A stretch of 55,593 nt of DNA, filler included, from Sluysia triapertura (Eukaryota): NCBI GenBank assembly GCA_046118255.1. It is 4 parts of 4 records of this genome, joined end to end, with 100 filler letters (N's around TTAATTAATTAA, not from the genome) between each part and the next. Parts side by side here need not be neighbours in the genome. Positions count along the whole stretch, not along the records: positions 11,361 to 28,034 come from JBJNIA010199153.1; 3 more parts are not named here. One strand, 5' to 3'. The notes under the pieces were generated by a model. That model made no database searches. It was given only the letters and a program-made list of their open reading frames with translations, and was not told the DNA's origin. Shown one piece after another: positions 9,205 through 50,915 of this stretch. Each line of letters begins with the position of its first letter. The first letter of the stretch is position 1. The position numbers were made by a program, and so were the translations under genes.

Positions 9205-10739
9205 ACAACTTAATAAATAATTTATTAATTTCTAGCTACTTATGATTATAATTCAACAACAATTGATTTATTCAAAATGGATTTTGTTCGTAATAACAAC
9301 GATTGTGACATGAATACGCTTTTACCACTTAATCGCTTATATTTTAATTTTACAATAGCACAAAATATATTATCAAATGACAACTATTGTTCATTGTTTA
9401 CAACATGGAACACAGCCAGATTTATGCTATCTCAAAGTTATCAAATAATTAATAAACTGCAATCTACAAACACCACAAGTTGTACAATATTGATTTATGA
9501 TGAATTTTATGGTTTGTATTAATTTTTTATTTAATGATTTCACTTTTATATTAAATACATTAAAATTTTAACTTCAAATGGTCCTTACTCCGAACATACA
9601 CTTACAACGCAAAAGGACAATTTAAGTAAAGTTAGAATCCACAATACCTAAATTTTTATTAACATGACATTTGTAAATGAGACATTTTGAAAAATAAATT
9701 ACAGAAAATTTATTTTTGTATTTCAAACAAATTCAATTAATATATTTTTTATGCTTTTTTAAGTGCACTCACAAAACGTAATATTTATAAATATTAAATA
9801 ATGATTCTATGAAATAGAATAAATTACATTATAAAAATAATGTTTTATGATTGATATTATAAATCAAATTTTTGAATAATGAATTTTAATTACGTACCAA
9901 TTAAATTTTGTAAGAAATATTGTGAAAGAAAAATTAAATAATTAATAAAATAAGCACGTTAAAATTACCAAAGAATATTGAATTTAAGCAAATAAATTCA
10001 ATTTTAAAAGTGATATATGTAAATAAAGAATAAGTATATAAAGATCAAACGTTCACTTACTAGGACAATTAGAAATATCTAGATTCTTATTTTAAAAATG
10101 CATTTTTATTTTGCAAATGATATATTTTTTATTGGTGTTTAGTAGTCGTAATAATTTTTATATTATTATATATGTAATTGTAAGTTTTGTGTGATTACTT
10201 GATTGTGAGCAAAGATAACAATAAAATCTTTATTAATACGTAGATAAACTTTGGTAAATATGAAATAACACATTTCTACCTTGTCCATTGTGTTTATTGT
10301 GATGCGGTTTTGCTTAATGAAGCCAACTTACGATCCTAAGTTGAAAATAACTTTAAAAGTCCGTCTGTGGTCCAAGACTTACATGATTTTCCAACGTAAT
10401 AATAGTTTTTTGAGGGCCATTATTTATATTTTTATCATCTTTACTAATAATTCGTTTTATCGCTACTTTTATGATTTACTATAAGGTGAAAATTAAATTT
10501 AAAATTGTTATTATTATTATTACAAAATACGAAATAAGGACAAAATCCTACTAAAACATAATTACAGTGATGTCTCAATATCATGTTTGGATCAGAGAAG
10601 AACAAAAACAATTATCGTCTCAATGTGACAGAATAAGCACTGTGATATAGAAGAATGTGATATCAAACATACGTTTCATAGAAATAATTTTAATCGTGAA
10701 ACAACCATTTATGTAAGAATATCTCTTTGTAAGAAAATC

Positions 10740-11260
10740 TCATTTAATAAACAGGTTAACTGTGAATTTACTTTTCATAGTAAATCAGTATTACCAGGAC
10801 TTGTTTTATACGCAGATTTTGAATTTGCAGTACTACCAGACGAACAATATCAACAAAGACATGAACAATCAGCTGCAGCTTTATTATTAGTGTACAAACA
10901 CGGAATACCTATAGTTTTGCTGGTGATAAATGTGTGGTAAATTTTTTAAATAAAATTGAAAAACTTGTTCAAAATATAGTTATACCAAGATCAAAAAGAA
11001 ATGAATTTCACAAATTACGAACAATTTCAGTTTAATAATAATAATATTTGTGTAAAAAAACGAGCAACTAAACTTGTTAATGATCATGACCATTTTAGGG
11101 GTATATATTTAGGTCCAATTTATAATAAACGTAATTTAAGTAGAAAATTTGTCTAACTTTACTTATATTATTTCATAATTTAAATGTAAATGACATTCAT
11201 CATATATTAAAATATGCATTGGATGAATTAATAAATTGGGAAATAACCTGTACACTACAA
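10740..11260 (+). mobile_element. Polinton/Maverick (adintovirus-like) protein-primed DNA polymerase B, N-terminal/exonuclease fragment, decayed and cut by a gap
   Basis: Manual translation across frameshifts gives PGLVLYADFE (YADFE), VNDHDHFRGIYLGPIYNKRNL (cf. VRDHCHxTGxYRGxAHxxCNL) and IIFHNLNVNDIHHIL (cf. FHNLxGYDxHxI), in the order known for Polinton pPolB. Confidence 0.8.
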
Positions 11261-11360
11261 NNNNNNNNNNNNNNNNNNNNNNNNNNNNNNNNNNNNNNNN
11301 NNNNTTAATTAATTAANNNNNNNNNNNNNNNNNNNNNNNNNNNNNNNNNNNNNNNNNNNN
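11261..11360. other. Assembly spacer (44 N + TTAATTAATTAA + 44 N)
   Basis: The same 100-bp construct occurs three times; TTAATTAATTAA is a six-frame stop linker. Confidence 0.95.
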
Positions 11361-11833
11361 GGCGAAAATATATCGCGAAAAAAATTTTTGTTTCAATTAG
11401 CAGAAGAACTTTCCGCAGAGTATAAAACTCCATCTGAACAGGAAAACTTGAATCACATCTTGCAGAGACCTGAAAGTTCTAATATAAGAAAAACTTGCCA
11501 AATAGGTTATTGTAATGAAAATAAAACTATGAACATATGTGCTGGTTGTAAAAAACATGTATGTGGTAAATGTACACTGAAAAAAATTTCTATATGTAAA
11601 AATTGTGGCGATCCAAATAATAACTAAACCTAAATAAAAAACAAATAATATTACTACATTTTATGTAAATAGATGTATATATCATGTACCTGCAATATTA
11701 GGATGAAATATATTTTATTTTATTTAAAACTTTTGTTTTGATTTTTATATTTAGTCAACTAAATATCAAACCGGTCAAAATGACCGGTTGGTAGAGATAG
11801 GTATATATCAATGCTTGGTATGTCTAGTGTTAA
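11361..11833 (+). mobile_element. piggyBac transposon 3' end: transposase C-terminal Cys-rich domain, right TIR and TTAA
   Basis: ORF 11388..11627 has SRKKFLFQLAEEL and RKTCQIGYC...CAGCKKHVCGKC...CKNC (piggyBac CRD). Subterminal palindrome ACCGGTCAAAATGACCGGT near 11770. Ends TCTAGTG|TTAA at 11829|11830-11833. Confidence 0.85.
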
Positions 11834-11839
11834 TTAATT

Positions 11840-13725
11840 TTAAATAACAAAAATTAATAAAAGAATTAACATAAAAATGTCTATACAGTTACATTTTTCC
11901 AAGATATTCCTTCTGACCATGTTTAGGATCTTAACATCTGAAATAAAAATCATGTTTGGCAATGTTGTGTTACGTAATATTAAATTAATAAGATACCAAT
12001 TTAAGAGTTTGATGTTATAATAAATTACATTAGTTTTAGGTTTACCTAACAATGCTTTAAAGGTTATTTTTACATAATAGAAGTTTAATAATGTTCGTAA
12101 GTAAGTTATTGAATTTAATTTAGCATAACTCGGTTGATTAATAAATTTTAGTCTTAAAATCAAATCTTATATAAACTTTCTTTGTATTAAGGAATCTAAT
12201 TTATTTATAAGGAATATCTTTAAAACTTTTATATAATTTAATGGTAATCAAGTTTCGAAAACAAATTAAGAACGCGTTAATAACAAGAAATTTTGTATTT
12301 AACGCATTTTTTCTATTCCTACGCATATCATTTGGCCTGGCTTTGAAATAAACATCTAAATAAAAATGATAGTTTAAACTATATAAAAAGTCAATAAAAG
12401 AAAAATTTACAATATTAGTATGTTGTATAAGTAGTAACTTCCAAGTAAACATACCTTGACTTGGTTTACTGTGATAATTAAGAGCATACCAAAGATACAC
12501 TTCCAACAAATTTTCAATATCACTGTTTTCCGAATATATGGAAGAGAGCTTCTTAAATGTTGAGTATTGAGTAAGTTTGTGAATAACTCCGCACGTTTTT
12601 GAAGCGTGACGGTAAGCGTAAATACTGTTGTTAACTAAATTATCCATTAATTTCCTAATATAACGTAATGGGTATAATTATAAATTTGTGGTGCCAGATC
12701 GATTACAGTAACTAGAATGTAAGATATATTCACGTAGAGAAGTAGGTTCTGTTGTATTTGTAAAATTGTAACATTTTAGATTTTGAATCAATGTGTATCG
12801 AATTCCTCTATCAACAATTATATCAAATTTTAGTTTAAATTTTTCTATGGCATCTCGATTAGAAGTAGAAGACAACATCAAAATAGACTCGTACTTATCA
12901 AGTGAATCGACTAATTCATTATTAAAATACATAAATGAATATGCGCCCAAATTAGATATTAAATTAGAATTAATATATTTGTAAACTCTACAACATTCTT
13001 GATAATTTGGCATAAAACATAATACTTTATATTTATTATTGGTAACAACTGAAGATAGATTGTTATTCATTTTACCAGAACAGACATTTTTAATAGTATT
13101 TAAAATTACTTCAACCAAGTTTTCGCAATCAATTAGATTATCAAAGTCTAATTTGATTTGTTCTTGTATCCAATTAAATTTCATATTATAAACTATAAAC
13201 TTAGAAAGTGTAATAGCCATATATCATTTGAAATTGGAGCAGTTAATAAAATCAACTTATTTGGTTCTAAATTGAGCTTTAATCTTAACTTCTGAATTCC
13301 GATAAATAAATCATTGTAGCTATTACTAATATGGTAATTCGATATTAATATTGATTTAAATCTTTCAAACATTGATCTACTAACAAAATATTAGCAGCAG
13401 TAAATAGTTTTACGATGGTGCATACGCTACTTAAACCATTAAACCAGAATGTTTCATTGTAGGATTCGAGAAATAAAGTATCACTAAAATACTGGCTGAT
13501 TTCCGTTACACTGGACAAATTGAATACACCATTTATAATTATCACATTAACACTTTTCAAATAGAATTTACTAACAGATGTTGAATGCTTCGCAATTCGC
13601 AAATCGGACCTCATACTGCAAGCTATAGGACATTAACTTGGTGAAAAAACAACTTGCAAATCGGTGGTATCAACAGGCATTAAAAGTGAAGATATAAATG
13701 TTGTTTTTTAGACGAAGACAATAGT
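11840..13725 (-). pseudogene. Decayed SF2 DExH-type helicase gene (NS3/CI/NPH-II/DEAH-like), intronless, candidate endogenous viral element
   Basis: Motif-like blocks in canonical order across frameshifts: I-like SSSKK/KTT (about 13710), Ia-like VVFSP, II-like ILLVDQC, III-like KLILLTAP (about 13235-13260), IV-like VLCFMPNYQEC, V-like STSNRDAIE...FDIIVDRG. ORFs 12678..13220 and 12201..12647 are the same frame split by one TAA. Motif VI is not clearly recognisable. Confidence 0.65.
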
Positions 13726-14508
13726 ATTTTTATTTTACGTTATTTTTAGCACATGATGACCGGTGATTGGTCATTCAACCAGAATTGTTTGCCAGAATGA
13801 AAAATGAATATTATTCTGGTTGGATGGCCAATAAAAGTAGAACATTTAATAAACTGGTTATAGTGAGTGATTAGCCATCACCAGTATTGACATAAATCTG
13901 TTAACAGAAATGAACAGTGTCAACACTGGTGACATTTTTTGATGAATTAAATTAAGTTAATAAAACTTTATATCAATAATAATAGCAATAATGTTATTAT
14001 TATTAATATTACTTTAATAGAAAATACTTTAAAATGCATAAAATCTTGTTGAAATCCACATGATCTTTCTGCCTCTTTCTTTGAATTTCTAACATATTTT
14101 AAATTACAAATGAAATAAAATTTGATAAAATTGAATGTAATAACAAGTTGAACAATATTGTAGTTATTGTTTTTATTACATTGCATAAACTTTTAGATTC
14201 TTTAAAAACTGTATACAAACTTCATTTAGCTACTAATGATTTCTGAATATATTGCAATAATTTTAAATATATTTGAAGCTAAAATCTCTGAATAAAGAAT
14301 AGTTTAAATGAATTTGCATATGTGATTAACGTTTCAAGGTATGATAGCAGTTTTATGTCGTCTAGTGAAATGGAGAATGTGAGAATGGATTTTTAGATGG
14401 TGATTTAAGTTCTTGGTTGAAAGTAATATTTGAATATTGGAAGATTCTGACCGTAAGATGCATTAAGAAGAGTGTGGTTTGGTAAACGTGAAAAGATAAA
14501 TTATAATA

Positions 14509-14900
14509 CAACTATTGGTATATTTGAAAGGTTATTGTGCAATGTTTTATGTGATTTGTTTATTTGTTGTTTTTAAGTGGTATTGTATTTTGTGTTGTTG
14601 GTGATTATGTAATAACAAATGCTGAATTTAAGGTGTTATAATTGATTCAACGGTGCAAAGTGGATAATTTCAAATGCGGTTATTATTTGATTGTTGTGAA
14701 TGTCGAGTTACATATTTTTGATGGATTTTTTGGTTTAAATTGGTGGTATTGGATGTAAATGTGAAGTGTAAGTTATAAGATTGTGAATATGATTTAACTT
14801 TGACAGATGAACTGTTCTATAAGTGTAGAAAAAATGATATGTGAATATTAGAGTGTTAAGTATTATTTTTATCGAATTTTAATAATATTAAGGGTTGACC
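14509..14900. repeat. Dispersed repeat, copy 1 (copy 2 at 48984-49331); probably a non-LTR retroelement fragment
   Basis: Shared sequence such as TTGGTATATTTGAAAGGTTAT, ACAAATGCTGAATTTAAGGTGTT and GTGAAGTGTAAGTTATAAGATTGTGAAT. The class assignment is a guess from strand skew. Confidence 0.85.
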
Positions 14901-14919
14901 ACAAAAAATAATTAAAATT

Positions 14920-15560
14920 TAATGCATTTGGCGAATTCGGTGTTAATTTATGTAATAATTTAATCTTAATGGTAAAGGATGTAATTTTCAGTTTTAGCAT
15001 CAATGCACTAATTTGCGAATTTACAAAGCAATTATCCATTTGGTATTGTAATTGTACCAATTGTTCAGTCAGTAATGTTCGAGATATTTCGAATTGTATT
15101 GCTCAATACTTCTGTTCACTGATACATTTAGTTTCCAAGAGCACCGATCTGAAAACTGGGAATCTATGAGAGACTGCGAGATTTAGTGAAATATCAATTA
15201 AGAAGGACAACAATGAAACATGTTGAACATGCTAAGGAACCATTTATTAATGGTCGATTCATTTGAAGAGTTACATGAAGAATATGCGACGCAAATCAAA
15301 ATTGGTTTTGTATGGCTACTTATTCATTTTCCAAAAGACGGAAATGTTCTATTATTATTATTATTATTTATCTACAAAAGTGCACTGATTATTCGAATTA
15401 CGAGAATTTACAAGCCCGAAAAATGGGTCAGTGTTGATTGTGTAGAAGCAAACAAAATCCATATTTGTGGATTCAACTGAATTTTCATCAATTAACACAT
15501 CAATTTTTTCTGTCAAGCAGTTGGAATGGCGCAAGTAATGCTTCGTATGTACGGTTAGCG
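14920..15560 (+). pseudogene. Decayed coding-like island, unknown family
   Basis: GC above flanks; adjacent ORFs 14969..15169 and 15220..15480; no motif recognised. Confidence 0.3.
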
Positions 15561-18500
15561 TTTATATTATTTTATGAAAAATAATATTTTATTTAATATA
15601 ATTTAATAATAATAATAATCTGAGCTGATTGAGGGGCTTGTTGGACAAGTATATATGAATAAAACACTAAAATGCTTTAATATTATGTGAGTCCACCTAG
15701 TCCGAAGAAGATATTAACTGATGATTTATTACTAACGGAGGTCACTTTCATTTATCGAATTTTACTACTTCAGCTCTTAAAAATGTTTAGTTGTACAATT
15801 AGTGAAAGTTGATTAATTAATGTTTTTGCATTCAAATATTATTGATATTCTTTAAATAGAACTGATAAATAATAAGGGATTACTAATTTCAATTGATAGA
15901 CGAGAATCAGATTTTATTAATGTTAATCTGAACTTACAAGGGCTGATTCGTAGAATTATATTCTAAGTAAACATTGTAGTGAGGAGTTTGAGAGAATCTT
16001 CATCAATTTAATAGTTTATTTTGGTTTATTGTCAAATCGAACCTGATGAAAATTTACGTTTTTGTATTTCTATGTTTAGTCTGATTTATTTTTTAAAATT
16101 AATTAAATAATTGGAAAAATTTATTAATAAAACCTCGAAAATAAATCGTTACATATGATAAAATACTTTATTGAAATTATTTTTATTCAATAATCTTATC
16201 GATTTATAATTTAGCAATTATCTTATTAAATTTATATTTTCAGTAATATTTTGCTAAGCAATTTGTTAAATAATTGCAAAAAACCTATCAAATAAAACTA
16301 ACGATTTAAAAGTTTCCTTGTCAGATACAAAACATTTGATATATGATTTGAATGATCGCTTCAGAAAAGACAGCCACACTTTGTTGAAAAGATATGACGT
16401 ACAAAGATTTATACAAATTTTGTATAACTTTTATGTAATTAAATTATTTGATTAATTAAATTAATTAATTAAACTTTGACCTTAAATAAAGGTCTGGATA
16501 TGAACTTAAACAAATATTCATTTAAATTTTAAGAAATAAATTATAAATATTGTTAGTAAAAATCCTACTTAACAGTTAAAAAATTTATTATCAACAAGGT
16601 TCATCTGCATATTGCGGTATATGTCTTAGAGAGGACGTAATTACAGATACTGGTTTTGAAATATTTTCGCTGTAGTAATTGAAGCTTCCCTACACTGGTA
16701 AGGCCAAGAATTTTATCAAAGAATCATAAATACCTTTGCAAAATAATCAGTTATCTATTAAACTCGATATCGTAATTGATAATGTCTTAACTATGTTTTT
16801 TCTGTATTATCTTAAAAAGTCTCGATTTATCTTTATCGTTAGAAATATCTTTAAAACGTTTGAACCTTTTAAACTTATTTTCTATTAATAAACTCCTTAA
16901 TTTCTCTTTATTCTTTAACTTTTTATTAAAAAATACTGATTAGATCTAAATTTATCTTTTGAATTCTTAAAACTATAAACAAAAATACAAATAAGTCAAA
17001 AACTTTAATAAATTATCAAAGAAATATGAAACAAAATTATACTGGTTGTACGAAATCACAAATTTAATAATTGAAAGTAAAGAAAATTACCAATTATATT
17101 TATTTAAATTTTAATTTAAATTATTTGAACCAGGTATAATACTTGGTTTTTAAAAGTTTAGATATTTTACGTAATACTTTTATGCTAAAATTGTTAAAGC
17201 ACAAACTTATAAATTAACTTACGTGTACAATGTTCCGAAATAATTAACTTTGCATAAAAGATTTCCTCGACGAATAGACAATTATATTGTTGTCCAAAGT
17301 TCTGTAAAAGACCGAAAATTCGATTAAACAATTTATATTGTAGCAGAATTTGAATTTGTTCCAACTTTATATAAAACCGACAATTCGCGTTAATTTCCAA
17401 AAAATATGTAATGTTTTGTTCTGAAAGCGTTAAAAATTTTTTAGTGACCTTACTACAAACTTTTCGTATATATATTCCTTTTTGTGAGACTTAGAATATA
17501 AAATTTTCACAAATATATAATTAATTACTTTTAGATGCTAAATATTTGAAATAAAAGCTTTTAAAATATAAATATTTATTAAAATTTTATTAAAATAAAC
17601 AATTATTGTTAATGTCACTAATTTTTTACAAATTATTTACAAAGATTTAATATAATTTACAAATATTATAATTATAAAATTATTTTGTATTTTACTTGAT
17701 ATTCATATTCGTTTTATAAATTATACTTATTCACATTGAATATTTACTCGTTTTTAAATTTTAATAAATAGATAATGGACATTAATTATTTACATAGTTT
17801 ATTTTATTAAATATATTAATTTTAATATTTAATATTATTTGGGTAATTGCACACAATTATTTCTTAATTAAAAAAATCTTTCTTCTAAAAATATGTGTAA
17901 TTACATTTTATTTTACATCTTGACAGGATAATTGAGTGATAAATCAATGCTGAGTCAAATGGGTGTGTGCACTTGTAAATGAAGATTGACCGCAGAAGCT
18001 CTTAAAACAATTGCAGGGGAAACACTAAAACAAAAAAATATTTATTAAAATTGTAATAAAATCACAAAATAATTATTTTACAAAATATTATAAATCATAT
18101 TAGTTATTCAATAATCATATAGAGTTTTGTGCATGTAAAATAGTAGAATATTAAATTGGTTATGAAATAATAAATTGGTTTTGTAAATAATATACCGATA
18201 ATCAATTGTAAATAAAAGTAGATGTGGTTATTATTATAATATCTCAACTACTATTTAAAGTTTATTGAAACTCTACCAGCTTTTCTTTTTGAAGCTACAT
18301 CAGGTTTATTGACATAAAATATTGGGCCTAAAATATATATTATTGTTGAAAATAATACAGAATATTAAAATAGTAGTTAAAGCCAATGAAATAACTTTCA
18401 ATAGTAGTATTGAAAAAAATGGAAAATGAGAACAAAGAATAGATCCTGCCACACTTAATTAGTTAGGAAGGGAGCTGCAGAATAAACGAAAAATACCATA

Positions 18501-21386: not shown

Positions 21387-22529
21387 TCAAACATCGAAGT
21401 TTTTTTTAATAAAAGTGCATTGATAATAAACAAATAACGAATATAAATTAAAGTCTAAAACCTTTTCGCCAGAGAATTCTAACACTTGAGTCATTGGGCA
21501 GAAATTGGCTTCATCCATTTCGTGAGCTATACAGAATGACATGAATGCTAAGTTGTCACGATTCAACACATATTGATAGGCCGTTCTATGCACATTCTGA
21601 TTTACATCGGCGAAGATACCAGTTTTATCAGTTATTAAATTATCCACATCGTAGTTCAATGCCAACGTTACTAAAGCTTCTAGTTGTTCAGAATGAAATT
21701 CACTTTGTTTTTCAAATATATTCAAAATACATTTTAAACTTTTAAAATATCGTAATAACAGCTCCTTTTCACGCTTCAGCAGCATTTGAATATAACGCGT
21801 ACGTGCTTTCAACGCAGTAACTTTCGAGCATTCACTATTCGTCGTGTTCGCTAACTTTTGCTTTAAAATCTCGAATCTGATTTTCAAATCAGAACGTATG
21901 TTCTTTTCCAAATTGTCACGAATGGCTTTATTTATGAAATTTAATGATAATGATACTGAAGATGTGGAATATGTGGAAGACGTAGCTACATAGGAGTTAC
22001 TCGATTTTGAACGTTCTAATAAATCAGGAAAAAACATTTTATTCTCATTAATAACTTTACGTAAATCCATTATAAAATAAAGGATGAAATAATAATTTAA
22101 ATTAATATTATACCGAAGTTCACTTTCTAAATTTAAAATAATTAAAAACCAGTCATCTTTTTTTACCGTTCTTTTAAAAAATCGTTTACAACCTTCACGA
22201 ACACTAACACCATAATGCTTTCCATTTGATAAATCATTGTTGATTACGCAGAATTCAATTCTTGTAGAATTTGTTGAAATATTACTGCAAATTTCATGAG
22301 TGGATTGTAAAACAGAATTCAATGATTCGGTAGATACACTATTTATGTTTCTATTTTCATCCGAAATTTGTAATAAAGTTTCTGAACCTAGTTGTTCCTG
22401 ATCATTACATTCTATTTCCAAGTCAAATATGCTGTTTGTTTCGCTTTGAATATCTTTATTTTCAAAATGAATTGTAGGTTCAATTTTATAAGGCATTATA
22501 CTGCATACAATATTATTCAAAATTATCAT
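21387..22529 (-). CDS. 380-aa chimeric ORF: nuclear-receptor N-terminal/zinc-finger remnant fused to an unknown ORF starting MDLRKV at 22070
   Basis: Longest ORF in the window. [32 protein letters not shown] matches the NR DNA-binding domain; the C-terminal part is unrecognised. Confidence 0.5.
22152..22250 (-). pseudogene. Degenerate first C4 zinc finger of an NR2-class (RXR/USP-like) nuclear receptor
   Basis: Compared with RXR [32 protein letters not shown], two of the four Zn-binding Cys are lost, the P-box EGCKG reads EGCKR, and the second finger is absent. Confidence 0.8.
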
Positions 22530-25029
22530 AGAAAAGATAAGTTCAAATTATATGACCTTCATACAGATTTTGACAAAATATAATCGATAATTGTTATAAG
22601 ATTCAGTTAAGCAAGAAATGTATTAATTAATTATTTGTTCTATCTTATAAATTAAATTAATTTTTTTAAATGTTACCTTTTTAAACATTCAAATAGGCGA
22701 AATTATCTTGAGACTATAAAATATCATAATAGTAAAACAAAACAAACTTTATTACAATTGTTAAACATAGAAGTAACAAAACAAATACAGAACTTGACAA
22801 ATGCACGAACCTTTTGCAACATTTCTGTTCTTGTTCAAAAAACTATACAAACATAACCAGTAAAAGAATTCTGTAAACATTACTGATCATCAATTACATT
22901 CAGAAAAAGATATACTTTATATAAAACAATGTTACTGACAGTCAGATTTCTTACTAATAATGAATTGAATCATTAATATATCATCCGTGACTTTTTGTAA
23001 GCTTATTCGAAAAGTATCATTGTTCCCTTAAGCTGGTTATAATAATGATACAAAAATTAATCACACAATTAAATGATTTCAAGTCATAATTCAATTATTG
23101 AGCAGTGATTGGTTTGTTATTAATATTTTAATGCAATATATAAACTCGGATACACAACGTACACACACTTTGGTGAGAAACAGTGATTTCTTAATTAAAC
23201 CAATAATTAGAAAAACATCTCTTGCTTTGGTGCCATATTAATTAAAGTTGCTAATGTCAATCTTTCAATTACTTATAATCTGAGAAGCTAAAGTAACCTC
23301 AGTTGTGTCATTGTGTAAGTGTCAATAAGTTCATTAAATGCTATTCTTCGATTTTCTTCATTTTCGTTACTATAAAGTCTTTGTGATTCGAGTTTACCTT
23401 TTTATATCAAAATCATTTCGTACTTTCTTTTTTGTCCATAAACAGTTGACTGAGAAATTCTTATATGTTCTTTGAATAACACATAATCTAAGTTATTGCG
23501 AATTTGTTGCGCTTCCTTTGCATCCATTTTTGATGTTAATTTGATAAATTCCATTTGTATTTCATTTTCAGACTTAAAGTTATTCAATTTGTCTTTATAA
23601 ACTGGCTTCAATTTCCGCAATTTTGATGAAATAATGATAATGATAATATCAGATATAAATTATGAATGTTACTACTTAACAATAATAGTAATAAAAATAC
23701 TAATAATAAAAAAAGGAGTGATATAACGTTGATACTGTTAGGAAAAGCGATGTTGGTGGATTGAAAGCAACATTGTACGATATTATAGTAATTTAGATGT
23801 ATTGTATGTTATTTAACTTAAGCAATATTATATTTTATTTAATTTAGAGTGTATTAATGTATTGTGTTTAAGGTGTGTTATGTTTTCGGTGTTGTTGTAT
23901 GTACGATGTGGCATATTGGATATTAATGATTGCTGGGTAAGAAGTTGACACTACACACCTCATAGTAAAACACAGTGTATAAGTAGAATGTATTTCGCAC
24001 ACATTCATTACCCTTTAGTTTACGCCAATTACAAGTTGATTGCGACATATTTTTAAGATAAAAAGTAGATCTTATGTAACCAAAGTTGTCCAATCGTAGA
24101 TCACACTATACAAATTGCAATTTTATTTCCTACAAAAATACAAAATATTACCTTTAATACCATAATTAAAAATTATAAGTTAAAAAGATTTATTTTAATT
24201 TTTTGCACGATTAAAATTTTATTACATTAAAGAATTGTTTTTGAACTTGTTATGGTCTCAAAAAGAATTTGGTGTCATTTATTGTCTTATTTTAAATGGA
24301 TAAATTATTTTATGTCGAATATAATTAATAATAATTATAAAATCGTTGATTCAATTGTAGTGAAAGCGGAAGTGGCTAAAATGGCAGAAAGAGTTGCATG
24401 CATCACTTATACTTTTGCTTGAATTAAAGTAGGAACATCGAAAGTTAAAACGCATTGTTCATTCTGAGCAATTTGATATCGAATACGAAAAGCAGTTATG
24501 AACCCTTCAGGAGATTATAGGTGTTAATAATAGAAAGTATAATTTTTAAGCAGTAATTTGATCATAATACTCCCACACAAAACAGTATTATAAATCATAC
24601 TTTAGTTTTAAATATTTCAAAAATAATCGAAATACTAATGAATTAGAAACAGTGTCAAAATCGTTTATAAATAAAGATAAAGATTTCGAGACAAAACCAT
24701 GATCAAAACTCGTTCTACGTGCTCTCAACAAACAATTTTCTTCTGTATTAATATGATTAAACTAGTTTTCAGTTTTTCTCAAGATAAACAAATCATCTAC
24801 AGCTGTGATAATGAAGTTAGATACATGCTGAAATCACATTATTTCAGTAAATCGAAGTCACAAGATCCTATGATCGAATACCAGTTAAGCAAATTCAAAC
24901 AAATATTTAAGGAAGTATCGAGTGTATTCAACATAAAACATCAATAAAATGTAAACTTCGAGTTTATCGTTAGTAAATATTTCTTGTATTTTATAAATAT
25001 TTTATGATATTTTGTAAATGTAAACTATT

Positions 25030-28034: not shown

Positions 28035-28134
28035 NNNNNNNNNNNNNNNNNNNNNNNNNNNNNNNNNNNNNNNNNNNNTTAATTAATTAANNNNNNNNNN
28101 NNNNNNNNNNNNNNNNNNNNNNNNNNNNNNNNNN
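28035..28134. other. Assembly spacer
   Basis: 44 N + TTAATTAATTAA + 44 N. Confidence 0.95.
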
Positions 28135-33479: not shown

Positions 33480-34765
33480 ATTGAAAATTCCGAAGAAATA
33501 TTAATAAGCTTAAAAAGAAGAGATGCTAAGAACAACGTCATGAAAATCTAGAAAATTTAACACAGCAGATGAGAAAGAACAAGTTACAACACGGTTCAAT
33601 CAATGAAATTGCTGCTGCATTTCAAGCAAACCGTCTAACATCAAGCAGAATTTGGCATGCAGCACGAGCTCAATGCCGATGTTGCTTCAAAAAAGAAAAA
33701 TGCAAGAAAAAACGAAAAGATTATTCTGACAATTTAGCTCAAATAAAGAATACACCATTAAATTGCCGAGGAACGATTCGCAGCCTTTCTGTCGCAATTA
33801 ATATTTCATCATCAACTTTGTGTGACATATTTAAACAACGAAACTGTTAAGCTAATATCTTCTACAGTTGAATCTACTTTAACGGATAAAAATAAATTAG
33901 AAAAGATTACAGTTTTGCTTGCCAAAGGTAAACGTTACCAGTGACGAAAAATGGTTTTATCTTAGTAGAGTTAAATACTCTTAATATCTAATGCTAGACA
34001 AAGAAGGACCTGAAAGAAAATGTAAATGCAAAAGATTTATCACTAAAACGGTGTTCATGGCTGCGGTGCTTCGACCAGGCTATGATATAAATATCGAAAG
34101 CATTATTTTGATGGTAAAATTGGAATATGGCCCTTCATATATCAAGAAGCGGGTAAAAAATTTCTATGAACAGACCCAAAATAACAATAATACATAAAAT
34201 GTGAATCTGTTACAGCTGGAAATTGTAAAAAATGATTATATGAAAAGTTTTTCAGCAATTAAATGCAATCAGCAAGATAATGCAAAACCGTATTTCTGTG
34301 ATAATAATGAAGATATTGTTGCTATAGATTCTGCTGATTGTTGGAATATTAAATTTAATATTAAATAATCCTGATTTAAATATACTTGATTTGGGTATTT
34401 TTAACTCAATACGGTCGTTGCAACATGAAGCTTCAGCAAATACAATAGATATATTGATTGATTGTGTTCAAAATTCATTTAATAAATTAACGTTGTTACC
34501 ACATTACAAACATTGATAGAATCAATTATATTAACGGTTGAAAAAAATTCTTAAATAAGGCAAAACTTCATCGCGATTCGCGAGGGTCGATTATCTGAAA
34601 AATATTTATGTTCCGAAGAAGCGAACAATCTTATTTTAATTAAATTTGTATTATAATAAAATCATATTTTGTTTAAAAAATGTATATAATATAATTTTTA
34701 TGTTAAATTTTAGTTTTATTTTATTTTTTCACAAATGTATACCATAATTCCGGACAGAGGAAGTA
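33480..34765 (+). mobile_element. Decayed plant-type Tc1/mariner (DD39D, Soymar/Osmar/Stowaway-related)
   Basis: DEKWFYL (33943), KRFITKTVFMAAVLRP, FDGKIGIWPF (alternate frame), QQDNAKP (34270), PDLNILDLG (34370). Right end GGACAGAGGAAG|TA resembles the Stowaway-type ACGGAGGGAG|TA. Confidence 0.85.
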
Positions 34766-39767: not shown

Positions 39768-40777
39768 TTATATAATTTTATGTTGTAATGGCCGGGGCGT
39801 AATATTAAGATATTTAAAGTTAAACTTGAAAAATTTAATTAAAGTAAAACATGACTTTATAAAATTATTCAAACATTTTAAATTTTCGTTGGTAAATAAA
39901 TCAATTAAAACGTAAGGAGTTGCATCAATATATTTAATTTTTATTCCATAACAAGTATTAAAGGATACAATAAAAACATTACACATATTGATCGTCATCT
40001 GGTAAACATTAGTCGTATTGACCGTGATTATAGAAACACTACACTTGTCAATCGTTGTCATAAAAATATTACTTATATTAATAGTTATCATAACAACATT
40101 ACTTATATAAATGGTTATCATAAGAGCATTACTAGTATTACTTGTTATCATAGAAGCATCACTAGTATTACTTGTTACCATAGAAGTATTACTAGTATTA
40201 CTTGTTATCATAGAAGTATCACCAGTATTATTTGTTATCATAAAAGCATTACTAGTATTCTTTGTTATCATAGAAGTATTACTAGTATTATTCGTTATCA
40301 TAGAAGCATTACTAGTATTACTTGTTATCATAGAAGTATTACTAGTATTATTTGTTATCATAGAAGCATTACTAGTATTATTTGTTATCATAAAAGCATT
40401 ACTAGTATTATTTGTTATCATAAAAGTATTACTAGTATTATTCGTTATCGTAAAAGTATTACTAGTATTATTTGTTATCATAGAAGCATTACTAGTATTA
40501 TTTGTTATCATAGAAGTATTACTAGTATTATTTGTTATCATAAAAGCATTACTAGTATTCTTTGTTATCATAGAAGTATTACTAGTATTATTTGTTATTA
40601 TAAGAGTATTACTAGTATTATTAGTTAACGTAAAAGTATCACTAGTATTATTTGTTATCATAAAAGCATTACTAGTATTCTCTGTTATCATAGAAGTATC
40701 ACTAGTATTATTTGTTATCATAAAAGCATTACTAGTATTCTTTGTTATCATAGAAGTATTACTAGTATTATTTGTTA
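39768..40777 (-). CDS. Asn/Thr/Ser-rich decapeptide-repeat protein, 5' end lost in the gap
   Basis: ORF 39768..40751: about 22 MITNNTSNxx repeats, about 5 diverged repeats that keep the 10-aa register, then a unique tail ending at the shared CCGGCCATT motif. Confidence 0.5.
40111..40777. repeat. 30-bp tandem repeat, about 22 copies (TTTGTTATCATAGAAGTATTACTAGTATTA)
   Basis: Direct read; substitutions only, no indels seen. Confidence 0.97.
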
Positions 40778-40877
40778 NNNNNNNNNNNNNNNNNNNNNNN
40801 NNNNNNNNNNNNNNNNNNNNNTTAATTAATTAANNNNNNNNNNNNNNNNNNNNNNNNNNNNNNNNNNNNNNNNNNNN
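40778..40877. other. Assembly spacer
   Basis: 44 N + TTAATTAATTAA + 44 N. Confidence 0.95.
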
Positions 40878-45611: not shown

Positions 45612-46514
45612 TGAAATGGCCGGTATGAATTGGGGCTTAAAAAACTAATAATGTTTGCGATCTCAAAATTTTCATTTAAATAGAGATAATTACAGAAAGC
45701 GGACTAAGGTCCGTTCTAAACTTCGAATATTTTAAATTACAAACCGGCTTAAGGCCATTTTTAAAGTAAATCTTTATTAAATCAAATTAATAAGAGAATA
45801 ATAAAAAGTCTCTAAATTATATTTTATAAAAAGGCTCATCAAGTATTCATTGGGAAGGACAAAAGATTTCAGATCGCAACTATAAAAAGGAAAAATAAAA
45901 CCTGAATTTACGACGAGAGTGCATAAAGTTTTGAGGCATTGTGTTCGAAAACTACAAAGTCTGTCAAATGAAGTCCTGACTATGTATTTCAAATAAGAGG
46001 CATCAGTCAATCTATGCATCAGTAGACCAATTTCTTGCACACACAGATCGTATTCGAGTTTGAACATCGCAACAATGATGTACAAAGACACTTTTTACTA
46101 AAAATGTTAACTTATTTTTAACTTGAGTCGAATTATCATCAAATTCTCTTTTATGACGAGATAACAATGTCAATCGAGCTCTATTTCGTTCTGCTTCCAA
46201 GTGATGAGTATTATTACCACAATTAATACTGATGTTCAAAGCCACGTCAATTGAAACTGGCACCAACTTCATAGATTCTAACGTACTTGTGGATCTGTTA
46301 AAACAGTCGACAGTAATGTTAATTTATCAATCATTTGTTGATCATATGTAATACTATATTGACTTTGAAGATTAAATTCAATATGATTGGGTCCAAATCT
46401 GTTGGCTTGTGGTGCGATTTGAACAGGAAGATATTCAACGTTGTCATGATCCAAATCTTCCGTTAAACTTCTAATAAACTGGAATTGAAAAACTTCACGT
46501 GCAAAAATATTCAT
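45612..46514 (-). pseudogene. Intronless coding-like island with frameshifts, ending in the shared CCGGCCATT motif; unknown family
   Basis: Consecutive ORFs 46278..46514, 46012..46272 and 45777..46091 in different frames. 18-bp identity to 21153-21170 at 45615-45632. Confidence 0.5.
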
Positions 46515-48983
46515 TTGGTGTCAATAACGCTATTGTGATATTTCAAATAATAAACCAAATAAAATCGTTCTTAAAATAAATATCTAAAAAGTGGTGTTAT
46601 TTAAACAACAGAGAATTATGTGACTATCAATCCGATTAATTCTGTTAAAAACTTAAAATTCTTTTAATGCTAATACGAATTCCTCGATTCTAAATACTTG
46701 ATTCTTTATTTTATCATATTGCTCTATTAATTCTGATATATGAGAATCTCCAAAAAAGCATCAGTATCATTCATTTTATTTTCATGAACTTGACGATACA
46801 TGAAAAATATTTCTTGAAAAAATAATAAAACAGAAAATGAAAAACTGTACATAATACAAAGAAAATTTCAAAAAAAGGAGATAAACAATATTTTATTAAG
46901 TAGTCACATAAGGCGAAGTTAGCAGGTTCAGATCGGAAAGGGAGGGGCGATGTCAGCAAATTAATGGTCGTACTAGTTGATTTTATTGTTACAATTTGTA
47001 AACCTTTATCTTCTATTTTGAAATGTTATAGACTGGTTAGACATTTAGTGAGGTTCTAGTATGAGTATTTGTAGGTGAACTTAGCGTGAATTTATGAATG
47101 ACTGTGTTATATATTTTATTTGATATTTGTTTATTTTACTTATTTACTTATTCGGTTCTATCTCGTTTTCATTCGGTGGTTCGCTTTTCTTTAGGTTTTG
47201 ATGCTGTTAAGATTTGCTCTAGCAAAGTTATATTAGTCTCGTAAATTCACTTATTTGGAGTCGTTCGTTCACTCGTCGTAAATGGAACGATGGAAGTGCA
47301 AAGTTTAGTTTATGGAGCTTTTGTTATTTTGTAATTATATTTATAAATTTTGGAACGATTTTGTTATTGTAGCGTTTGTTTTTTTAAAAAATATCTTTCA
47401 CCTGTTGTGTTAAAGTACTTGAAATACATTATTAAATAGAACAATACGTTACAACAGTTGTGGATTTTAATTTGAGCATAAAGTAGAATGAATGTAATAA
47501 TAATTTCGAATCAAATGCTTAGATAAGTCTGACGAAACTACTCAATTTTACAACTCAATTTCACAACTTAATATTATCCTATCAAATTATATAAAATTTC
47601 CTTTTGGTAGATGTCTGTTTAATCTTAATTTATTATTCTTTATTTTCCTTTTTTATTGATATTGCGTTTATTTTGTGAAAATAATCATAGTCAAGCTAAT
47701 TCCAAGTTAATTTTTGGAAGAGAATCAGCTTATTGAAAAGAAATAAATGAATAGAGAAATATCATATATTAAGTATTAAAAGAAATTACAAAGATAAATG
47801 GAATTCTGAAACAAAAAAGTTTGTTAATAAAAGTAACTAAAAAAGATTCATTGGATATTAAGTGTAATGAGATAATTTTATAAAAATTAAAAATTCAAAC
47901 AAGAAGGCTGAATCAAACGACTCGCCAAAACTAGTTCATGAGAAGAACTACTCAGCCATACTAAATTCTGTATCGTAAAATCAAATTAAGCAAATATTCT
48001 AGTTCAGATAACGTCATACAGATAGGTCTCTCAAAAGAGTGTCATCTAACTCTTAATTTAAGCCTATTTTCTCCGTTTTCCTTAAAAATTGTCGCATGTA
48101 ATTCATACTGACAACAAATAAAGGAAAATGATAAATAATAATTTAATTTTTAAACTTGTTTAATCAATATTTTATGGCTTTTTTAAATTGCCAGTAAGCG
48201 ACGTAATTATCTCTACTGGATTTCAGTGTTTATTTAAATCACGAAGAACTTAACAAAAAATTTGTCACTTGTATTTTCCCAACTGCCTACTCGAATATTT
48301 CTATAACTTCGTTATTATTAGTGTCTGTTATTACAGCTTATTATTCCGGTTTTTTCTCTATTATTATTAATTAAAATTTACTTCGTCGTATTTAAGCTAG
48401 AATTTACCTTTTCACTTAACTTATTATTCGAAACGCAGTAATTATTTTAATCTTAGTATTTTGTTATTATTATTTATTAATTTAAGTTATTATTATTATT
48501 ATTATTCTAAAGTATAAACTTGATCGTACTTTGATAAACAGTGTGTATATTACAATAATACAATAAGTCTGAAAATTAGTGAGCAAAAATGGCGCTGTAA
48601 GTAATTATAAGATCACCACGAAGCAAATCAGTTAGATAACTTTAAAATCAACTGAAGTAATATGGTGTAAGTGGAACAGCAAATATTCATGAATTATTTA
48701 AATATTTAGGTAGAAATAAATATCGTATATTAATTTGTCGTTTTTAGCATTAATATTGTTATTTATTGTAATTTCTGTTGCCATGACTGTATTTTCAGTG
48801 AGGTTAGATTTATTAAATTAGTCTTTGATAAATTTAATAATCCTTGAGGATAAATTATTAAATTTAACCTTAATTGATAAAAGAGTCTTTCCATCTTGGA
48901 ATTGAATTTCTTTATATCTTTATTGATATTAAAGATATTAAATATTAAATATTAAAAATATTAAATTTCCTATAATTATAATG

Positions 48984-49331
48984 CAACTCTTGGTATATTT
49001 GAAAGGTTATAGTGCAATGTTATACGTGATTTGTTTATTTGTTGTTTTTAAGTGATGTTGTATTTTGTGTTGTTGGTGATTATGTAGTGACAAATGCTGA
49101 ATTTAAGGTGTTGTAATTGATTCGAAGGTGTACAGTGGATAATTTCAAATGTGATTGTTATTTGGTTGTTGTGAATGTGGAGTTATATGTTTTTGATGGA
49201 TTTGTTGATGTAATTTGGTAGTATTGGGTATAACTGTGAAGTGTAAGTTATAAGATTGTGAATGAGATAATGTGTGAATATTCGAATGTTTAGGGTTATT
49301 TTTGTCAAATTTAATAATATTAAGGGTTGCC
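48984..49331. repeat. Dispersed repeat, copy 2 (see 14509-14900)
   Basis: Alignable by eye, with an internal deletion relative to copy 1. Confidence 0.85.
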
Positions 49332-49749
49332 CACCACAATATTATCAACTGTTCTTCAAATACCTTTAGAATTCGTATTTTAATACATCAGTATTCGGAA
49401 ACATAAGCCTTCTATTTACATTTGTTAATCCTTTTTAGTCACCCAAATTGCTTTATTCATCTGCTTGCCTGTGATAAAATCGAAGTGGTAGCGGAATAAT
49501 AATAATAAACAATTTAATAAAAATGTTTACAGTTTAGACTAAAAGTTTCATGTTGAAAAGTAAACATTTTAAAGATTGGGAACACACAAAATTAGTAAAA
49601 AGGAAAATCAAAAGATAGAACAGAAACAGAAGGATTGAAATGTTGATGAAATAAACATTAGCGGATATAGGAACTACAAAAATACAGTTACTGCAGACTA
49701 AAATTTAAAATTTAGCTTTAATACAATGTCGACGAGAAATACTACATAA

Positions 49750-50339: not shown

Positions 50340-50915
50340 GCGTTAGATTTTTGAAAATCAAACTTACAAGAACCACACACTTCCATGTCTAACAGTATAC
50401 ACGATTGTTTAAAATTTATAAATAGTTCTGATATTAATAAGTTAATGTTTATAGTTATAGATTACTGAACAAAGATTATAACATTTAATTTGTTTAATTG
50501 ACCTATTTTAATTAGATATTAAATGAAAATAACTTCTTCATCACTTACATTGAATTGGTAAGTCCTTTTTATTTTCCCTCTGGGTACACGTATCAGGATC
50601 TGGCATGGTCTTGTTTTGAAGTACATTTGTACATTCGTACTCTGCATGATACCGCAACTCAGACATCCACACAACAGTCGATGAGGCTAAATCCTTCATC
50701 ACACAGGAAATAGGAATCTGAGCAGATAATCCCAGTTCCGAACCACTGGGCACATCTTGAGATACTGAATATAATTGGTATGAACAACATGAACTGGACG
50801 ATGTTCGAAATTCTACACAGATTTCATCTGCATCGCCTTCAACATTATGAGGTGTACGGGTACTTGATTCAACCGAGTTCATACTCGGTTCAATTTCCAA
50901 TCGGTCCTCCGATTA
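50340..50915 (-). other. Possible host exon(s) of an unknown gene or pseudogene
   Basis: GC-richer 119-aa ORF 50541..50900 ends at a GTAAGT donor (50548). A candidate AG acceptor at 50390-50389 continues in frame as YMEVCGSCK. Confidence 0.35.

Follow-up and report, generated by a model that had tools for sequence, protein, structure and literature searches.

A decayed, intronless helicase-like gene with dead motifs in a many-copy repeat of Sluysia triapertura

A decayed helicase-like gene is present on the minus strand at 11840-13680 of the DNA analysed here (55,593 nucleotides with filler, made up of four parts of the Sluysia triapertura genome; hereafter the window), and it sits in a many-copy, diverged repeat rather than being a lone insertion. 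We observed homology of its motif II-IV region to known helicases, many diverged copies, dead motifs shared among these copies, and stops and frame breaks that are mostly private to the copy in the window. Our tentative reading, to which we give slightly less than an even chance, is that an intronless helicase-like gene with dead motifs in most copies was carried as cargo of a mobile element, and that its protein, as predicted, was an ATP-independent RNA-binding decoy or scaffold. Live copies would have produced this protein.

The relic was assigned to the DEAH/NS3/NPH-II type by profile, ORF and shuffle tests, and it extends for about 613 codons from a likely start (M-P-V) to the last stop. 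Stops were found at 13635-13633, 12680-12678, and 12169-12167, and the frame is broken near 13358, 13203, and 12200. The first-pass annotation had reported about 340 codons interrupted by one stop, and 340 codons with a single stop were indeed found at 13223-12201 (minus strand), compared with a longest run of 195 codons and a mean of 94 in 1000 dinucleotide shuffles. The motif-like strings quoted at that time were all located on the minus strand in the order given: ILLVDQC at 13389-13369, KLILLTAP at 13258-13235, VLCFMPN at 13025-13005, STSNRDAIE at 12869-12843, and FDIIVDRG at 12827-12804. The helicase-like relic is real.

Reference helicases were gathered by short motif scans and comprised potyvirus CI, pestivirus NS3, poxvirus NPH-II and other large-DNA-virus types, bacterial HrpA, and eukaryotic Prp22/Prp43-like proteins, with no spindle-E or YTHDC2 type among them; the family labels were assigned by us from motifs. 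A profile pooled from 44 reference helicase cores was compared with the read-through of the relic (X at breaks), giving a local score of 34.5 versus 14.1 ± 2.2 in 60 shuffles, and a global score of 19.9 versus 2.3 ± 1.6 in the same number of shuffles. Because the joins in the read-through were chosen by us, the test was repeated on unjoined ORFs. The ORFs at 13390-13196 and 13223-12681 scored 10.6 and 10.5 bits, respectively, at collinear positions of the profile, and both outscored all 183 other ORFs of the window (best, 4.7 bits) and 200 of 200 shuffles each, whereas the remaining three of the five pieces (the motif I-Ib piece and two C-terminal ORFs) scored at chance. Since two unjoined ORFs scored collinearly above the controls, the motif II-IV region can be taken as an established homologue of the SF2 DEAH/NS3/NPH-II branch; the two ends of the relic are putatively assigned to the same branch by eye. 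The original identification as a helicase of SF2 DExH type agrees with the collinear motifs II-III-IV-V, the family spacing and the profile scores of the unjoined ORFs. Single-family profiles gave nothing significant against six-frame chunks, and single-family profile-profile scores did not tell the families apart. For the C-terminal 285 residues, no reference-family C-terminal profile, including that of DEAH/RHA, scored positive, and Pfam gave no match. Structure prediction from the single sequence yielded a low pLDDT of 31. A model of the second domain reached a pLDDT of 63; this model was built on a borrowed alignment of DNA-virus helicases, and is hence circular and cannot prove a tandem RecA-like fold.

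The catalytic motifs of the relic depart from those of active helicases. The motif I region (13576-13653, minus strand) was read by eye because the motif I-Ib piece scores at chance, and it offers two registers, VVFSPS at 13653-13636 or IAKHSTS at 13596-13576; the Walker A sequence G-x-G-K-[TS] is missing from both. Motif II is ILISNYH (13331-13351, minus strand), which aligns with "iilDEaH" and has the spacing to motif III expected of motif II. It has S-N in place of D-E, giving S-N-Y-H instead of D-E-x-H, and its codons differ from any D-E codon pair by at least five of six bases. The string ILLVDQC, previously taken as motif II, proved to be the helix that precedes ILISNYH, which lies in the next frame. 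After motif III (KLILLTAP, 13235-13258, minus strand) comes a helix whose register matches that of its counterpart in DEAH-type proteins, and the II-to-III spacing is 33 residues in the relic, compared with 32-33 in DEAH proteins and 29 in CI and pestivirus. Motifs IV (VLCFMPN) and V (STSNRDAIE) and the IVDxG block were placed by pooled profile and alignment in a putative second RecA-like domain (12804-13025, minus strand). It had been thought that the piggyBac element cuts off the terminal motif; however, a motif VI region is present at 12681-12722 (minus strand). It lies inside the piggyBac-like end by about 850 bases, and the terminal motif can thus be checked. Its register is ambiguous (LHSSYCNR or NRSGTTNL), and the motif is degenerate, QRxGRxGR being kept in neither register. 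Depending on the register, the spacing from IVDxG to motif VI is 30 or 36, compared with 24, a short hairpin, in poxvirus NPH-II.

Copies of the gene were examined in contigs of one public run from one study, possibly the window's own source. Among the public runs listed as containing the stretch there was no RNA data set, which says nothing for or against expression. In total, 4,821 contigs mapped to 11400-16500, and their summed depth, which is not a copy number, ranged from 360 to 26,900 across 11400-14990. A single-copy flank was indicated by one 945-base contig that matched 14864-15808 with zero differences at a depth of 15.3. Contigs matching the helicase core (1,061 bases) numbered 743 (37 at ≥99%, 128 at 95-99%, 266 at 90-95%, and 312 below 90%). 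Up to 56 separate contigs covered one site of the core, indicating at least dozens of variants. The many-copy nature of the gene, which the first-pass annotation did not mention, was shown by this contig pile-up together with the terminal segment of the repeat, which occurs twice in the window.

A majority difference was defined as a site at which the window differs from at least 60% of the contig depth. There were 49 such sites in the 1,061 bases of the helicase core. Among the 40 of the 49 that were listed, none fell in motifs Ia, II, or V, and the few in motifs I, III, IV, and VI, which touch one base in each motif I candidate register, were insufficient to restore canonical sequences. Dead Walker A, DExH and QRxGRxGR motifs are common to most copies, indicating that the family probably spread as a pseudo-helicase. 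The earlier suggestion that the donor already encoded a pseudo-helicase is borne out to the extent that the motifs are dead in most copies with only 49 majority differences in 1,061 bases. The stops and frame breaks are mostly private to the copy in the window: the depth differing from the window was 976 of 1,004 at the stop at 12680 and 404 of 445 at that at 13635, and 609 of 1,072 and 141 of 228 at the breaks near 13358 and 13203, respectively. Because most of the depth lacks these stops and breaks, most copies, judged site by site, likely had an open frame with dead motifs. The 40 listed differences were distributed 17/14/9 over codon positions 1/2/3, as expected for neutral decay of the window copy alone. 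No intact copy of the gene was seen among the contigs of the run.

The terminal segment of the repeat (14499-14903, no strand assigned) has the highest summed depth. Its second copy lies at 48974-49335, is 90% alike over 290 bases, and has the same endpoint as the first, near 14903; this end is common to both copies, and the other end lies behind the piggyBac-like end and the gap. No coding signal was detected in the segment on comparison with the second copy: the 29 substitutions between the two are spread 12/7/10 over the codon positions, and the segment was rejected as a coding region. A clean solo-LTR reading of the second copy was likewise dismissed by eye, a matching end or duplication being absent. 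Neither paired ends nor a target-site duplication was found for the repeat, whose left end the piggyBac-like end and the gap conceal. Within 11835-14990 no transposase, integrase, or reverse transcriptase was found; such a gene may sit in the part of the repeat that is missing. The repeat is likely a mobile element, of a class not assigned. Between its two frames, 13711-13970 (no strand assigned) is a spacer or a short ORF with an imperfect inverted repeat (13745-13785 and 13813-13853). An Rfam search gave one weak miRNA-like match, far below the cut-off.

Upstream of the helicase-like gene, on the same strand, the repeat carries a second stop-poor frame (14020-14530, minus strand). An F-box-like stretch at its start (14530-14456) matched Pfam PF00646 with an E-value of 0.017 and 15.4 bits, under the cut-off of 20.5. 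Env- or gag-like readings of the upstream frames had no Pfam support and were set aside. On the other side, a piggyBac-like right end (11361-11833, plus strand) was recognised by eye from a Cys-rich tail and TTAA at 11830-11833; Pfam gave no significant match to it. It abuts the last stop of the helicase-like gene and conceals the other end of the repeat. Beyond it, a decayed frame at 10600-11200 (plus strand) looks by eye like a Polinton-type protein-primed polymerase B; this frame found no support in Pfam, PHROGs or viral contigs.

The A+T content of the window is very high, with G+C at about 17-33% in each kilobase, and a Pfam search of its ORFs revealed animal genes; the host is presumably an insect. 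A 386-codon ORF at 21387-22547 (minus strand) contains a nuclear-receptor C4 zinc-finger domain (Pfam E-value, 2.5e-8) and is presumably knirps/eagle-like. Weak, sub-cut-off matches to stromalin (STAG/SCD) and Inscuteable in exon-sized ORFs at 45777-46323 and 50541-50912 (both minus strand) are consistent with an animal host. An ORF at 33530-33850 (plus strand) matched DUF7769 near threshold (E-value, 6.2e-6; 26.2 bits versus a cut-off of 27). A tandem array with a 60-base unit at 39768-40833 is open in three frames on both strands and adjoins an assembly gap. The gaps at 11261-11360, 28035-28134, and 40778-40877 each consist of 44 N, 12 bases and 44 N, the letters between the N runs of the first being TTAATTAATTAA, and are probably scaffolding filler.

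For the donor of the gene, the comparisons lean slightly towards a DEAH-type helicase, either from a large DNA virus or from a cell, over an RNA-virus NS3 or CI. A viral origin had been proposed, in part from the IVDxG block; this block also occurs in bacterial HrpA and eukaryotic DEAH proteins, and so does not demonstrate viral origin. What stands of that proposal is that an AU test allows CI and that viral polyproteins top a fold search, and what does not is the IVDxG mark, together with the RNA-virus profile, which was the weakest. When pooled profiles were compared with the read-through (20 shuffles each), the z-scores were 9.8 for DNA viruses, 6.2 for DEAH-type proteins, 2.1 for cellular proteins, and 0.8, out of register, for RNA viruses. 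The two unjoined pieces scored 12.9 and 10.0 bits with the DNA-virus pool, 7.6 and 3.7 with RNA viruses, and 2.0 and 3.7 with cellular proteins. Shared composition driven by A+T may inflate the DNA-virus scores, and the tree flagged the composition of the relic. In this tree (32 rows, with 13 of the 44 reference rows left out), the relic branch had 7.36 changes per site, and the highest identity of the relic to any reference was 15%. Neither grouping with potyvirus CI nor grouping with eukaryotic DEAH proteins was rejected by AU tests.

The opposite view of the donor, which we regard as unlikely, is that the gene descends from an endogenous RNA-virus piece (pesti-/flavi-like NS3 or CI-like) that was reverse-transcribed, captured by a transposon, deprived of its catalytic motifs and amplified, the copies perhaps serving as a source of small RNA. 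Of the trees tested, the one constrained to group the relic with potyvirus CI had the best likelihood; it exceeded the free tree by 4.8 log units and had an AU p-value of 0.71. Foldseek searches with the second-domain model, which was built from a DNA-virus alignment, also returned large viral polyproteins and pesti-like viruses as the top BFVD rows (E-value, 2.6e-4) and pestivirus NS3 as the top PDB rows. In addition, the T-A-P of motif III resembles the viral S-A-T-P, and the second motif I candidate, read by eye, is as far from motif Ia as motif I is in CI. However, the same borrowed-alignment model resembled DHX36, DHX9, and a megavirus helicase more closely (TM-scores, 0.50-0.54) than it did solved NS3 structures (0.37-0.45), the RNA-virus pool scored near its shuffles and out of register, and the II-to-III spacing is that of DEAH proteins, for which an indel could account. 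No protease or polymerase remnants were seen by Pfam search of the flanking frames, which are decayed. Moreover, a replicating RNA virus needs a live helicase, so the motifs would have to have died after capture and before amplification.

The high scores of the DNA-virus pool on both unjoined pieces would also suit a repeat that was once part of a larger virus-like DNA element, either Polinton-like or derived from a large DNA virus, with the pseudo-helicase and the F-box-like protein as accessory genes. Two intronless ORFs lying near each other on one strand, and the polymerase B-like relic seen by eye on the far side of the gap and the piggyBac-like end (about 10600-11200), are in line with such an element. 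We nevertheless consider it quite unlikely: the polymerase-like relic is without Pfam or viral-contig support and its linkage to the repeat is putative, the poxvirus V-to-VI spacing of 24 fits poorly, and none of 187 viral stretches with the motif VI pattern proved to be a tblastn relative.

A processed copy of a host DEAH gene, decayed and carried passively by the repeat without function, is very improbable in our view. The gene is intronless, and by eye it resembles cellular DEAH proteins in its M-P-V start, which precedes the second motif I candidate by about 28 residues, in its length of about 613 codons and in the D-x-x-x-G-x-x-K helix that follows motif II. Eukaryotic DEAH also gave the highest raw column score (53.8, a circular comparison) and an AU p-value of 0.52 when the relic was constrained to group with it. 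Against this, the relic reaches at most 15% identity to any reference, on a branch of 7.4 changes per site, and it retains the hydrophobic strand patterns but has lost the catalytic residues. Neutral decay would be expected to break reading frames within a few percent of divergence, and such divergence with an open frame in most copies would not be expected from it.

Searches for relatives were negative within their scope. A word-indexed protein search with the 341-residue read-through gave no match at an E-value of 0.01 among 1,720 longer, 1,109 similar-length, and 72 shorter candidates. Viral contig scans returned 0 of 5, 0 of 10, and 0 of 187 stretches as relatives, and a metagenome contig scan 0 of 103. 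The relic had no helicase match in Pfam, NCBIfam, PHROGs, or PDB sequences, and Atlas feature searches with two native ORFs gave unnamed clusters or nothing. Four loci in viral contigs of 2-8 kb (L144, L172, L186, and L220) encode SF2 helicases with a D-E-M-H box, which the tree separated from both CI and pestivirus NS3; their label of hypovirus-like is a guess. Standard annotation misses the repeat family because its proteins match none of Pfam, NCBIfam, PDB sequences, or word-indexed proteins. In searches of openly accessible articles, a mobile element with a dead DEAH/NS3-type helicase was not found. Helicase-carrying mobile elements are already known, and the present repeat possibly has an unnamed entry in a repeat database.

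In the cargo reading, which we favour, a helicase would have been captured by the likely, as yet unclassified, mobile element, and its ATP- and RNA-coupling motifs would have been lost before the copies spread with the repeat. The protein may then have bound RNA or cofactors without ATP turnover. Because the frame and the strand pattern were kept while the catalytic motifs were lost, and the gene spread with the repeat, the best reading is of element cargo whose task was non-enzymatic. Selection on the frame would mean that the element kept the helicase for a role other than unwinding, which would point to a counter-measure against RNA silencing.

Such a counter-measure is suggested by two precedents. 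Insect R1/TRAS LINEs carry a viral SF1 helicase domain that is proposed to be a silencing suppressor (Lazareva et al. 2015, PMC4686597). Drosophila Bgcn is derived from a DExH helicase, has motifs I and II that preclude ATP hydrolysis, and acts through RNA regulation and its partners (PMC5832417). By analogy with both, the likeliest use of the protein would be to interfere with RNA silencing in the host: the element might evade germline RNA silencing, the pseudo-helicase competing with host DEAH-type silencing helicases or their cofactors, perhaps with the help of its F-box-like neighbour; we hold this to be doubtful. It is unlikely that the process went further, with a hitherto undescribed mobile element of an insect genome capturing a viral DExH helicase, disarming it and spreading it alongside an F-box gene, the two together forming an anti-silencing module. 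In such a module, the dead helicase would grip RNA or silencing cofactors and the F-box adaptor would send them to destruction.

Helicases and F-box domains are each found in other transposons. The helicase of AcademH elements is of the RecQ type (SF2). AcademH DNA transposons are named in PMC10045372, and Zisupton transposons bear an F-box domain (PMC12062965). The present repeat differs from these in that no transposase was seen and its helicase belongs to the DEAH/NS3 branch and is dead. R1/TRAS LINEs are insect mobile elements that also carry a virus-like RNA helicase; theirs is an SF1 helicase fused to LINE ORF2, whereas the relic is of SF2 type, catalytically dead and apparently free-standing, and no reverse transcriptase was seen here. 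Bgcn is encoded by the host and belongs to the YTHDC2 family, carrying an ankyrin insert, whereas the relic is repeat-borne and neither an insert of this kind nor kinship with that family was seen.

Among helicases proper, pestivirus and flavi-like NS3 and potyvirus CI belong to the same branch and have the T-A-P of motif III, the top fold-search E-values and, for CI, the AU p-value of 0.71 in common with or in favour of the relic; however, the spacings of the relic differ from theirs, their pooled profile was the weakest, a polyprotein context was not seen, and the catalytic motifs of the relic are dead. DEAH/RHA helicases (Prp22/Prp43, HrpA/HrpB) and their relatives in large DNA viruses (poxvirus NPH-II and the asfarvirus- and mimivirus-type DExH helicases) differ from the relic in that it is without Walker A, has S-N for D-E, is without QRxGRxGR, shows at most 15% identity to them, has a C-terminal part that they do not match, and comes from a gene in a many-copy repeat. 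Yet these proteins and the relic have the same collinear motifs II-V with IVDxG, the same II-to-III spacing, the same helix after motif III, and the same overall length.
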